Under the pieces are notes generated by a model. That model did no database searches. It was given only the letters and a program-made list of their open reading frames with translations, and was not told where the DNA came from. This document shows positions 2,182-4,707 of a stretch of DNA of 7,351 bases, piece after piece. This stretch comes from a virus. Its lineage: Duplodnaviria > Heunggongvirae > Uroviricota > Caudoviricetes. The stretch's first letter is position 1, and every line of letters begins with the position of its first letter. A program made the position numbers and the translations under genes. The stretch is taken from IMG/VR virus record IMGVR_UViG_2693429524_000006, one strand, 5' to 3'.

Positions 2182-2877
2182 ATGACAGCTACAAAAAGCA
2201 CGTCCATTTTTTCTTTCGAATCCCAAGCCGATATACGGGTAATCGTCATTAATGGTGAGCCATGGTTTATCGCTTCAGATGTTTGTCGGGCTATAGGCAT
2301 AGCAAACCATCGAGATGCTGTTCGAAAACTTGATGATGATGAGAAGGGCGTCGCTTCAACCGACACCCCTGGCGGTGAGCAAGAATCGATCATCATCTCC
2401 GAGTCAGGCCTCTACACACTGATCCTCCGCTGCCGCGACGCAGTGACACCAGGCACTATCCCCTACCGCTTTCGTAAATGGGTTACAGGTGAGGTTCTTC
2501 CTCAGATCCGCCGCACCGGAAGTTACATTAAAAACTCGCTCCCGCAGGAAGAACGCATAAAGATGGTTGCCGACCAGGTAGCCAACGCCACGGCGTCAGC
2601 AGTGATGAAGGCGATGAAGATAGAGAACAAAACCTACAGCGCCCCGCTGAAGCCAGGCTACCGCAGCCTGATTCACTCGCCGTCTGGTGTTCTCGGCCTG
2701 ACGGAGAACTCACTGCTGATGAATCTGCTGAACCAGTTACAGGAAGACGGGCACGACGTATCGGGCGCGGCGGCGGAGCTGACCACCATGTTCTGCTACA
2801 TCGTCGGTGTGAGCAAATGCCTGCGTGATATCCAGACGCACGCGGAGTACATCAACGACAAGGCTGGGTTCTTCTGA
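2182..2877 (+). CDS. phage antirepressor B (231 aa): Bro-N-type N-terminal domain plus shared C-terminal module
   Basis: ATG 2182 with AAGG upstream; N-terminus FSFESQADIRVIVINGEPWFIASDVCRAIG fits the Bro-N pattern; last ~200 nt identical to ant C, synonymous differences further upstream. Confidence 0.9.
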   Translation: MTATKSTSIFSFESQADIRVIVINGEPWFIASDVCRAIGIANHRDAVRKLDDDEKGVASTDTPGGEQESIIISESGLYTLILRCRDAVTPGTIPYRFRKWVTGEVLPQIRRTGSYIKNSLPQEERIKMVADQVANATASAVMKAMKIENKTYSAPLKPGYRSLIHSPSGVLGLTENSLLMNLLNQLQEDGHDVSGAAAELTTMFCYIVGVSKCLRDIQTHAEYINDKAGFF

Positions 2878-2921
2878 CGGGCGGCGGCACAGGGATGTGC
2901 CTTTAAATAATTCTGTACAGA

Positions 2922-2964
2922 TTGCAGACTGTGGGTGAATAGCGTACTATTACCTCAAGGGTAA
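2922..2964 (+). promoter_or_regulatory. promoter TTGCAG-N17-TACTAT plus TTACC-N5-GGTAA repeat, driving 3025..3724
   Basis: -35 at 2922-2927, -10 at 2945-2950, inverted repeat 2950-2964 overlapping the likely start site. Confidence 0.5.
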
Positions 2965-3024
2965 ACGGATTGGTTTCATTTTTATTAATCCGTGTAATGA
3001 ACTTATGAGATATGAGGTAATGTC

Positions 3025-3204
3025 ATGCGAAACGAAAAATTGCAGATGCGTAGAGCGCAAGCTGCCGCAAGACGTTCTTTCAATGGAAGCGTAGAGTACG
3101 TAAAAGTTACTATGACAAAAGATCACGCAAGTCGCGTATCCCGCGCTTTCTTTGATTCTCGTAACAATAAGGAAAATTATGAGTTCGTCTGCGTCGCAGA
3201 ATGA
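3025..3204 (+). CDS. small basic protein (59 aa); candidate antitoxin or regulator partner of the downstream YafO-like gene
   Basis: ATG 3025 with GAGGT about 7 nt upstream; TGA 3202-3204; overlaps the next gene by 26 nt in another frame; absent from the supplied ORF track (below length cut-off). Confidence 0.45.
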   Translation: MRNEKLQMRRAQAAARRSFNGSVEYVKVTMTKDHASRVSRAFFDSRNNKENYEFVCVAE

Positions 3205-3724
3205 TAAAAATCAAGTTGTCAGATATAAGGGTCGAGTGTTGCATACGCAAAATTTCTCGGCCCTTTGTGCATCTGATCTTGAGCTGAAGAAAGTATCTGA
3301 TGCCTTTACCCAGTATTGGAAAACGGGATACCATCCATCTCTTGGTAAAGATGCTGCATTTGCTCGTCCGACAGAAATGCTTAAACTAAATGTCAGGCAT
3401 ACTCATGTCGATAACCAAGACTATATTCCAGAAGATAGTGATAAAAAACACACTGGTAAAAAATCATCTTGGGATGCATGGAAAAATATAGCGTCTGTAC
3501 AAGTAAAATGCATACCAACAAGTGATTGCTTTTTAGTTTATTCGGTAAATCACAATCGTGATGCGCTGGTTATGTTTTTTGTTGACGCAGATGCTCACAA
3601 CATAACTGAGCAAGAAGAGTTTAAAGAGGAAGCAATCACTATCAGTTATCAATTCTTTGAGAAAACAAAAACAGAACCAATGCCTTTAGAAGAAGATCTT
3701 TTTTCTGATAAATGGAAGGAATAG
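3179..3724 (+). CDS. YafO-like toxin family protein (putative ribosome-dependent mRNA interferase), 181 aa; family assignment tentative
   Basis: first ATG of the frame at 3179 with AAGGAA about 5 nt upstream (track start 3152 is TTG); blocks GKDAAF, KLNVRHTHV and LVYSVNHNRDALVMFFVDADAH align with conserved YafO blocks as recalled from memory. Confidence 0.6.
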   Translation: MSSSASQNDKNQVVRYKGRVLHTQNFSALCASDLELKKVSDAFTQYWKTGYHPSLGKDAAFARPTEMLKLNVRHTHVDNQDYIPEDSDKKHTGKKSSWDAWKNIASVQVKCIPTSDCFLVYSVNHNRDALVMFFVDADAHNITEQEEFKEEAITISYQFFEKTKTEPMPLEEDLFSDKWKE

Positions 3725-3744
3725 CCCGCAGCGCGGGCTTTTTT
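3724..3744 (+). terminator. rho-independent terminator
   Basis: GCCCGC-AGC-GCGGGC followed by TTTTTT; paralog of 972-992. Confidence 0.8.
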
Positions 3745-3816
3745 GTGGACGAAACAAAAGTCAGTGCTACACTCATTGACGCCACATTGAGGTGGCTTAT
3801 AGATGGAAATTTCACA

Positions 3817-3978
3817 ATGAAAAAAGCATTTGCTGCACTGTTCGTTTTGTTGTCTCTGGTAGCTTCAACTCAGGCCTTTGCCGGTCGTTGTCAGCACGAC
3901 AGCGATACTGCCGCTGACGGCTCCCGCTGCGGTGGGCGTTCTGCGGATTCCCGCCCGGGCGGCGGTGGCATTCGTTAA
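3817..3978 (+). CDS. small ORF with signal-peptide-like N-terminus (53 aa); doubtful
   Basis: MKKAFAALFVLLSLVASTQAFA followed by a Gly/Arg/Ser/Asp-rich tail encoded in GC-rich repeat DNA; this segment is absent at the equivalent position after 992. Confidence 0.25.
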   Translation: MKKAFAALFVLLSLVASTQAFAGRCQHDSDTAADGSRCGGRSADSRPGGGGIR

Positions 3979-4001
3979 AAACAAGGCCGCGAAAGCGGCC
4001 T
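3940..4001. repeat. 62-bp direct repeat, copy 2 (partner 996..1057)
   Basis: matches 996..1057 including palindrome CCGCCCGGGCGG (3951-3962). Confidence 0.7.
3975..4000 (-). terminator. intrinsic terminator for antirepressor C (minus strand)
   Basis: on the minus strand GGCCGC-TTTC-GCGGCC followed by TTGTTTTTAA. Confidence 0.55.
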
Positions 4002-4050
4002 GTGACATGTCACGCTAGTTTCGTTTTGCACGTCCCTGTGCCGCCGCCCG

Positions 4051-4707
4051 TCAGAAGAACCCAGCCTTGTCGTTGATGTACTCCGCGTGCGTCTGGATAT
4101 CACGCAGGCATTTGCTCACACCGACGATGTAGCAGAACATGGTGGTCAGCTCCGCCGCCGCGCCCGATACGTCGTGCCCGTCTTCCTGTAACTGGTTCAG
4201 CAGATTCATCAGCAGTGAGTTCTCCGTCAGGCCGAGAACACCAGACGGCGAGTGAATCAAACTGCGGTAGCCGGGCTTCAGTGGGGCGCTGTATTCTTTT
4301 TTGTCTTCCAGCTTGATCGCCTCCATAATGGCGGGCATGAAGCCTGACAAGACCTTCTCCACTTTTGTTTCTTGTTGTCTTAAACGTTTCTCGCATTCAA
4401 TGAAGTAGCGTCGTACCTGACGACCTTTTTCGTTACGCTCGACCATCGCCAGCTCTTTGGCTGTATCAAGGGTGAGGTGGTACTCTTTGCGGTTGTGGCC
4501 GCCTCTACCAGATGTTTGCTTTCCCAAATTGGAAAGCAAAATATAGTCTTGATTTTCAATGAATTCGTATTCTGATATGCGATTTGTAATCCATGCTGCA
4601 AACACCTTTTTAACACCTAAAAAAGCGTGCAGATCGCGGGCATTACAAAGTAGGGCTGTTTCGTTAGATATAGTGCCGTTGAATACGGGGATGAGTTGAG
4701 CGTTCAT
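4051..4707 (-). CDS. phage antirepressor C (218 aa): AntA/Rha-like N-terminal domain plus shared C-terminal module
   Basis: ATG at 4707 with GGAG 8 nt upstream; N-domain motif [34 protein letters not shown]; C-terminal ~85 aa identical to B. Confidence 0.9.

Follow-up and report, generated by a model that had tools for sequence, protein, structure and literature searches.

Paralogous modular antirepressors sharing an SPC32H Ant-like C-terminal module behind different N-terminal domains in the immunity region of an Escherichia coli prophage

The virus record IMGVR_UViG_2693429524_000006 raises the question of why a single prophage should carry several antirepressor genes that end alike and begin differently. 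The whole stretch of DNA analysed here, called the window, was 7351 nucleotides (nt) long and contained the 3' end of a gene A, the complete gene B on the plus strand, and the complete gene C on the minus strand (Table 1). An earlier note on this DNA had described them as mosaic paralogs, in which one C-terminal module was fused to different N-terminal domains with a sharp boundary of identity. In our study, the three genes were found to be best explained, with a probability of about 0.78, as paralogous modular antirepressors with a C-terminal tail directed against the phage repressor Rep, with swapped N-terminal domains standing behind antisense RNA locks of the C4 type, and with a module that recombines. 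Such an arrangement is a well-documented instance of a phenomenon already known, i.e., that of domain-shuffled, antisense-controlled phage antirepressors.

How alike are the genes at their ends? The 3' ends were compared with positions given relative to the final base of the stop codon, and gene B was anchored to the reverse complement of gene C at the stop codons. B and C were found to be identical for 227 nt (2669–2895 of the window, equal to 4259–4033), including 18 nt past the stop codon, in agreement with the identity over the last ~200 nt that had been claimed. Within the shared block they differed at only five places, namely 2646 (CCG/CCA), 2655 (CCA/CCC), 2667 (AGC/AGT), 2668 (CTG/TTG) and 2896. 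The last of these was present in the 3' flank; the four coding differences were all synonymous, as the earlier note had stated, and all were found within the first 34 nt of the block. The chance that four random differences over 243 nt would all fall there is about 4e-4. The homology ended at 2900, and 5' of 2635 the DNA of B and C was unalignable; in the linker, a weak protein resemblance was seen in about 15 amino acids (aa) (AVMKAMKIENKT in one of the pair). The alignment therefore contained a block of identity with a sharp edge and not a uniform divergence along the genes. The preferred reading of the block is that of a recent exchange between inverted copies, of a kind that happens occasionally. 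The module was found to comprise 80 aa (Y152–F231 of B) instead of the ~85 aa first proposed, and its presence was confirmed in B and C, whereas the window shows no more than 32 codons of A. Over these codons A differed from both B and C at -15 (AAA/AAG) and -12 (GCA/GCT); both differences were synonymous and were located within the last 30 nt, as had been noted. A and B shared another 85 nt of 3' flank, so that a repeat of 184 nt with 97% identity was formed (1–184 and 2779–2962).

The window was 99.2% identical to Escherichia phage TL-2011b across 67% of its length, and numerous prophages of E. coli that belong to the phiV10/epsilon15 type (Uetakevirus) also matched it. The window represents the part of such an E. 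coli prophage (epsilon15/phiV10/TL-2011b-like, Uetakevirus) that serves as its accessory immunity region. In the relatives, this region was placed between the tailspike gene on one side and the genes of internal virion proteins on the other. The prophage adjoined yfgI in the two loci whose flanks were fetched (L003 and L004); the attachment gene of phage ZX5 is guaA (PMC9782041).

The identity of the module was given by the Ant protein of phage SPC32H. The module aligned end to end with the whole 86-aa Ant (PDB 5D50 chain E), with E-values of 1e-13 for B and 5e-14 for C. The boundary of DNA homology (Y152 of B and Y139 of C) was equal to residue 5 of the stand-alone SPC32H Ant; since it coincides with the first residues of a stand-alone protein, it is a true domain boundary. 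A secondary account (PMC9638917, citing Kim et al. 2016) describes the SPC32H Ant tetramer as binding two Rep dimers and breaking up the DNA-binding tetramer of Rep. A full-length homolog of SPC32H Rep (5D50_A) was found in TL-2011b as gp10 (E-value 7e-42). The full-length match and this homolog support the earlier proposal of a shared effector module, presumably repressor-binding. Gene B was identical at 230 of 231 aa (99.6%) to ORF4 of vB_EcoP_ZX5, and over-expression of ORF4 changed the prophage titre from 1e9 to 1e6 and brought the transcription of the repressor down by 75% (PMC9782041). The full-length relatives of gene C were annotated as 'phage antirepressor Ant'. No model of the module was found in Pfam or NCBIfam, and no match for the ant genes or the cargo genes was found in PADLOC or NCBIfam; in PHROGs, the module was placed in 'anti-repressor' groups or in groups of unknown function. 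The match of the module to the structurally characterised SPC32H Ant appears to be unrecorded in the sources searched, and so does the presence of several ant genes behind differing C4 specificities in one prophage.

A stand-alone SPC32H Ant ortholog of 85 aa, annotated as 'hypothetical protein', was found to adjoin the tailspike gene in 81 of the 84 loci of the census described below, at a place corresponding to DNA beyond the left end of the window, on its upstream side. The stand-alone gene of L003, a syntenic E. coli prophage, had a perfect LexA box (CTGTATATTTATACAG, at 5806–5821), so the fused ant genes are additional to a canonical, SOS-controlled ant. No LexA box was present in the window, and control of B and C by LexA was rejected on that ground.

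The N-terminal domains were found to be of different families. Pfam assigned Bro-N (PF02498) to aa 17–107 of B (E-value 2e-21) and AntA/AntB (PF08346) to aa 22–92 of C (E-value 4e-26; 91.8 bits, with a cut-off of 27), as the earlier note had expected. Both assignments were above the gathering score, and that of B was also borne out by its fold; the Bro-N of B has an APSES/KilA-N-like DNA-binding fold. No Pfam cross-match between the Bro-N of B and the AntA of C was found even at E ≤ 10. The hhalign comparison of Bro-N with AntA gave a probability of 0.8% from shallow alignments, under which the positive control, Bro-N with P22_AR_N, failed too. The two domains are unrelated at the level of sequence, as had been claimed. 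In the AlphaFold model of B, the module had low confidence as a monomer. Another census locus, L079, was 99.96% identical to the window over 2400–6875 and contained a different Bro-N N-terminus and a different C4 type upstream. The breakpoint, at about 2400, was located inside the Bro-N of gene B, close to the conserved SESGLYTLILRC motif, and the switch of identity at this place means that the Bro-N domain is itself mosaic.

How widely is the module shared, and with which partners? An exhaustive HMMER search covering 1.84 billion representative proteins gave only 34 relatives at E ≤ 1e-3, which were either stand-alone proteins of 86–95 aa or C-terminal units behind Bro-N, AntA, Phage_pRha or ORF6N. 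In TL-2011b, the module was also found behind P22_AR_N. This search, together with a census, replaced a word-indexed protein search with a 94-aa module, in which 22 mostly fragmentary proteins were obtained and the full-length fusions were missed; a scan of genome contigs with peptides of the module confirmed no locus. The census contained 84 loci, i.e., the window, four annotated loci and 79 IMG/VR contigs. It held 81 stand-alone SPC32H-like ant genes, 41–44% identical to the module, and 110 fused copies, of which about 94 carried Bro-N (in at least four N-terminal variants), 10 carried P22_AR_N and 6 carried AntA. The N-domains are thus interchangeable, as had been suggested, the module being found behind each of these five or alone. 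At the nucleotide level, 469 of the 5426 complete E. coli genomes carried the module, with one to three copies in each and 582 copies in total. Full-length orthologs were found in Escherichia, Salmonella, Citrobacter, Enterobacter, Klebsiella and Yersinia.

The 109 complete copies of the module represented 89 nucleotide alleles and only 16 proteins, and the variable sites among them were 53 synonymous and 10 non-synonymous. All four gametes were present at 45% of the informative site pairs, and the minimum number of recombination events (Rm) was at least 18 in 243 nt. Divergence was 9.25 within a class of N-terminal domain and 10.85 between classes. The four-gamete signal and the near-equal divergence of the classes indicate that the module is one recombining pool, uncoupled from the N-domain that precedes it. 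Recombination or gene conversion under purifying selection, which had been read from the pattern in the window, was in this way found again in the census, with the qualification that conversion would be occasional and not continuous.

The antisense cassettes were the next element to be shared by the paralogs. An isrK-type small RNA (sRNA) and a C4-type antisense RNA were found in front of both B and C with scores above the Rfam gathering thresholds (77.7 and 61.2 bits for C4, where the gathering score is 45). In L003, the gene at the position of A encoded a full Bro-N plus module protein and was preceded by the same two RNAs. The unpaired elements of each C4 were exactly complementary to their own isrK and to their own ant leader (CCUUUUAG and ACGCCAA in B; CCACUUAG and AGACCAA in C), and one element in each cassette covered the Shine-Dalgarno region. 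The duplexes of the elements had energies of -7.4 and -9.3 kcal/mol for the cognate pairs of cassette B and of -7.4 to -9.9 kcal/mol for cognate pairs overall, whereas non-cognate pairs ranged from -1.7 to -4.4 kcal/mol. Energies at the level of the elements were used because duplex energies of the whole RNA region failed to separate cognate from non-cognate pairs, as the C4 stems pair too. A total of 91 cassettes from 76 loci contained three a-types and two b-types, in five of the six possible combinations, and in 89 of them both C4 elements matched their targets, within isrK as well as at the ant ribosome-binding site. Each C4 type was tied to one N-terminal gene variant, and the same C4 type was never found twice in a locus (0 of the 14 loci that had at least two cassettes). 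In TL-2011b, the P22-type Ant was accompanied by an Arc-like gene and a match to sar RNA in place of isrK-C4. No leader open reading frame (ORF) of the icd/orf45 type was found between C4 and the ATG of B or C, where only 48 nt are present. In the a3/bx cassettes (e.g., P0183 and P0186, 279 aa; L002, 7001–7843), an ORF started in the C4 region and read in frame into ant, giving 279–280 aa; gene callers disagree on its start codon. This read-through ORF recalls the orf45-anrP fusion noted for Shigella (PMC4825925).

The cassettes also bear on whether the extra copies might be functionless duplicates that arose by rearrangement and are decaying as pseudogenes. The region is visibly rearranged, with insertion sequence (IS) elements in some genomes, and it contains a truncated remnant of a P22_AR_N gene. 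However, the ORFs of B and C are unbroken, and each has a promoter and a ribosome-binding site as well as C4 and isrK elements that match; the excess of synonymous over non-synonymous sites and the full-length orthologs across six genera are likewise at odds with decay. The decaying-duplicate explanation is largely refuted, and we regard it as very improbable.

According to the explanation that we favour, each variant of the N-domain would travel with its own promoter-isrK-C4 cassette, and the C4 elements would pair with the ribosome-binding region of their own ant, so that each copy would be kept translationally silent. Expression of any one of A, B or C would lift the repression by Rep and direct the prophage toward lytic growth. 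Purifying selection would keep the protein of the module near constant, presumably as it must fit Rep, and the module would serve as a stretch of homology for recombination between related phages, giving rise to mosaics at the domain boundary. A recent exchange between B and C in this lineage would have left the 227 identical nt. The explanation is built on demonstrated homologies and architectures, on the signatures of selection and recombination, on RNA covariation and on the phenotype of a protein that is 99.6% identical to that of gene B.

Several points weigh against this explanation, and they concern both the effector and the exchange between B and C. The rep gene is located outside the window, and its presence is judged from the relatives. 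The mechanism of SPC32H Ant, taken from PMC9638917, and the operator of Rep are known second-hand. The fused module is only 37–45% identical to SPC32H Ant, and it is from sequence that we infer a binding of Rep by the fused module itself. The AlphaFold model of C had a predicted local distance difference test (pLDDT) score of 39, from a shallow alignment of at least 83% identity. A stand-alone SPC32H-like Ant is also present in the same prophages, and its first 40 residues are, by eye, near those of SPC32H Ant; it could be the real antagonist of Rep, and the fused module could have another partner or serve oligomerisation only. The last possibility may be stated as a rival explanation, in which oligomerisation (tetramerisation) is all that the module provides and the N-domains act, e.g., by regulating transcription as tetramers or by binding other repressors. 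It would fit with SPC32H Ant being a tetramer, according to the secondary account cited above (PMC9638917), with the N-domain of Listeria AriS having a phage-specific activity of its own (PMC9043618), and with the stand-alone Ant next door, which has a LexA box, being much closer to SPC32H Ant. Nevertheless, the 86-aa protein of SPC32H is an antirepressor alone, and the module matches all of its 86 aa. That a single module is found behind five N-domains, unrelated or only distantly related, is easier to reconcile with an effector that stays constant while adaptor or regulatory parts vary than with the opposite arrangement, although the role of the N-domains is one that we infer. The strong purifying selection on the module and the promotion of lytic growth by the nearly identical protein of ZX5 also speak for an effector. 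A module that serves oligomerisation alone is, in our judgement, distinctly unlikely, and the Rep-directed module remains the preferred reading.

As to the exchange, co-resident copies of the module differed by 11.6 nt per 246 nt and copies from different prophages by 10.6. General concerted evolution of co-resident copies was rejected on these values, and since co-resident copies are not more alike on average, gene conversion would be occasional and not continuous. The identity of B and C could partly be a coincidence of alleles. In the corresponding rival, no exchange took place within the genome; the cassettes arrived separately, and their alleles happen to coincide over the 227 nt. Besides the mean divergence, which is not lower within loci, this rival is favoured by the finding that about 1% of random pairs have runs this long (an identical run of at least 209 nt was found in 0.96% of 5860 between-locus pairs of modules), by the choice of the window for the very feature of B/C identity, and by the presence of the same B and C alleles in L079, so that the event is not private to the window. 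On the other hand, such long runs were enriched in co-resident pairs (3 of 26 within loci, the B/C block being one of the three; P ~0.002, or P = 0.024 with the window and its near-twin L079 counted once), the identity continued past the stop codon into non-coding DNA, and the differences between B and C were clustered at one end of the block. We hold separate arrival to be rather unlikely and retain the recent exchange between B and C.

The cassettes further allow a reading that we put forward only tentatively, as a possible but doubtful one, namely that of a combinatorial array of anti-immunity and immunity. In such an array, the same Rep-disabling module would be present in every fused Ant, each of which would be locked by one of at least five two-element C4 specificities, and, as between P1 and P7, an incoming relative with a cassette type for which the resident has no matching C4 could express its Ant and break the immunity by Rep. 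If this were true, prophages would gain protection by collecting different types of cassette, and this would drive the C4 code, and with it the linked N-terminal segment of the gene, to diversify. In its logic, the array would further be an OR gate on one repressor, where LexA would be the input of the stand-alone Ant and the C4/isrK or Arc/sar circuits would be the inputs of the fused genes.

The locus was compared with known systems. With Ant/Rep of SPC32H (PDB 5D50 and 5D4Z), it shares the homology of the module to the whole Ant, the Rep homolog of the lineage, the podovirus kind and the genome neighbourhood, as well as, in the relatives, the stand-alone ortholog with its LexA box by the tailspike gene. 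The Ant of SPC32H is small, stand-alone and LexA-controlled, whereas the Ant unit found here forms the C-terminal part of proteins of 218–231 aa with Bro-N or AntA, with an isrK-C4 cassette in front instead of a LexA box and with several fused copies per prophage. The antirepression by SPC32H Ant was reportedly worked out by Kim and Ryu in 2013 and by Kim et al. in 2016. ORF4 of vB_EcoP_ZX5 shares with gene B nearly the whole protein and the same isrK-C4 leader, and its over-expression favours the lytic cycle; the paper on ZX5 (PMC9782041) noted only Bro-N; SPC32H does not occur in it, and neither the module nor the paralogs nor the RNA cassette are mentioned. The region examined in ZX5 contains one fused copy, whereas the window contains three.

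The immI region of P1/P7 and isrK-orf45-anrP of Gifsy-1 (PMC4825925) have the same order of promoter, isrK targets a1/b1, terminator, C4, target at the ribosome-binding site and antirepressor. The read-through mRNA of Gifsy-1 is translationally silent (PMC4825925). Both systems have an icd or orf45 leader ORF, which is absent from cassettes B and C; the effector of P1 is of the KilA-C type whereas that found here is of the SPC32H type, and two to three cassettes of differing specificity are present here in one prophage. The specificity in immI of P1/P7 likewise resides in a few bases of two unpaired C4 elements. This few-base specificity is the basis of the heteroimmunity of P1 and P7. In Listeria AriS, a constant C-terminal KilAC is found with alternating AntA/AntB, Bro-N or pRha N-domains (PMC9043618). 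The set of N-domains in AriS-like proteins is the same as here, whereas their constant ANT/KilAC domain inhibits the SOS response and the constant domain here is an SPC32H-type Ant. As in immI of P22 (ant, arc, mnt and sar RNA), the slot of gene C in TL-2011b holds a P22_AR_N Ant, an Arc-like repressor and a match to sar RNA, but this Ant ends in the SPC32H-type module where a P22-type C-terminal domain would stand; only a fragment of this gene is present in the window. Domain-shuffled viral regulators were reportedly treated by Iyer, Koonin and Aravind in 2002.

The favoured explanation would provide a function with structural backing, i.e., the binding and disassembly of Rep, for the unannotated C-terminal half of widespread prophage proteins named 'BRO-N domain-containing' or 'AntA/AntB family'. 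One effector that is found bare and fused to five N-domains would offer a natural experiment on an old question, namely what N-domains such as Bro-N, AntA and Rha do in antirepressors. A prophage in which different RNA locks hold several antirepressors of a single repressor would bear on how prophages are induced and on their cross-talk, as well as on immunity to superinfection in pathogenic E. coli.

Table 1. Features of the window and of related loci; positions are those of the window unless a locus is named.
Feature	Position	Strand	Evidence or remark
Gene A, 3' end (last 32 codons and stop), C-terminal module	1-99	+	protein equal to B and C over 32 aa
3' flank common to A and B, with palindrome TTACC-N5-GGT(G/A)A	100-184, copy 2878-2962	+	left boundary of cargo
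orf211, cargo after A, 211 aa	328-963	+	PHROG 1349, function unknown
Terminators	970-988, 3723-3739		right boundary of cargo slots
62-nt repeat with minus-strand terminator	996-1057, copy 3940-4001	.	right boundary of cargo slots
orf242, 242 aa	1056-1784	-	conserved between ant cassettes; function unknown
Operator-like palindrome TTACCTTTGCGGTAA	1898-1912	+	adjoins isrK promoter (-35 TTTACA 1914-1919, -10 CATAGT 1937-1942)
isrK-type sRNA, cassette B	1949-2024	+	Rfam RF01394, 77.9 bits; ends in terminator
Upstream target copies in isrK B	b1 1974-1980 TTGGCGT; a1 1990-1997 CTAAAAGG	+	
C4-type antisense RNA, cassette B	2049-2134	+	Rfam RF01695, 77.7 bits
Recognition elements of C4 B	a' 2092-2099 CCTTTTAG; b' 2106-2112 ACGCCAA	+	
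C4 targets, B leader (2138-2173)	b2 2138-2144; a2 2166-2173	+	a2 overlaps Shine-Dalgarno, 9 nt before ATG
Gene B, antirepressor, 231 aa	2182-2877	+	Bro-N (2230-2502), linker, SPC32H-Ant-like module (2635-2877)
B-C shared block, 266 nt (-242 to +23)	2635-2900, mirror copy 4293-4028	+ (2635-2900)	100% run 2669-2895
Cargo after B: orf59 (59 aa) and YafO-like ORF (190 aa)	3025-3724	+	Pfam, PHROGs, RefSeq names
Small ORF	3817-3978		
Gene C, antirepressor, 218 aa	4051-4707	-	AntA (4432-4644), linker, module (4051-4293); Pfam; PDB 5D50_E
C4 targets, C leader (4718-4753)	b2 4753-4747 TTGGTCT; a2 4725-4718 CTAAGTGG	-	a2 at ribosome-binding site
C4-type antisense RNA, cassette C	4757-4841	-	Rfam, 61.2 bits; a' CCACTTAG, b' AGACCAA
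isrK, cassette C	4867-4943	-	promoter 4978-4950; operator-like palindrome 4980-4994
Truncated P22_AR_N antirepressor N-terminus	5142-5489	+	Pfam E 7e-32; RefSeq ortholog is a pseudogene
orf98	5490-5786	-	
Internal virion protein gene, C-terminal part only in window	5805-7190	-	
Stand-alone Ant ortholog	L003 5843-6100; L001 2746-3003; L002 3738-3995; L004 6746-7003		

The palindrome TTACC-N5-GGTAA was found six times in the window (172–186, 273–287, 1805–1819, 1898–1912, 2950–2964 and 4980–4994), where 0.18 were expected, and 14 times in TL-2011b (L005), where 0.78 were expected; the latter included 5946–5960, 5994–6008 and the rep-cro intergenic region. The palindrome adjoined the isrK promoters and stood in front of all transcription units in the accessory region, those of the cargo genes among them. 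It is probably the operator of Rep, in which case the cargo genes would be Rep-controlled and not expressed during lysogeny.

Conserved flanks were present around alternative cargo, consisting of the module plus 85 nt on the left and of 970–1057, or 3723–3747 plus 3940–4001, on the right. The gene orf211 was found after A in the window and after a B-type ant in L004; the pattern looks like an exchange of cassettes by homologous recombination at the flanks. The YafO-like ORF matched the Pfam family YafO_toxin with an E-value of 9e-6, just over the cut-off, and an overlapping ORF of 59 aa was present upstream; the two may be a toxin-antitoxin-like pair among the cargo of the prophage. The product of orf242 contained, as judged from its sequence, a hydrophobic segment at the N-terminus and zinc-ribbon, endonuclease VII and Lar-like matches at the C-terminus (PHROG 6762; weak Stc1). 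The P22_AR_N fragment is what remains of a fourth type of antirepressor. It was inverted relative to the intact gene of TL-2011b, which ends in the same module, and it is a scar left when the slot that gene C now holds was rearranged or refilled.

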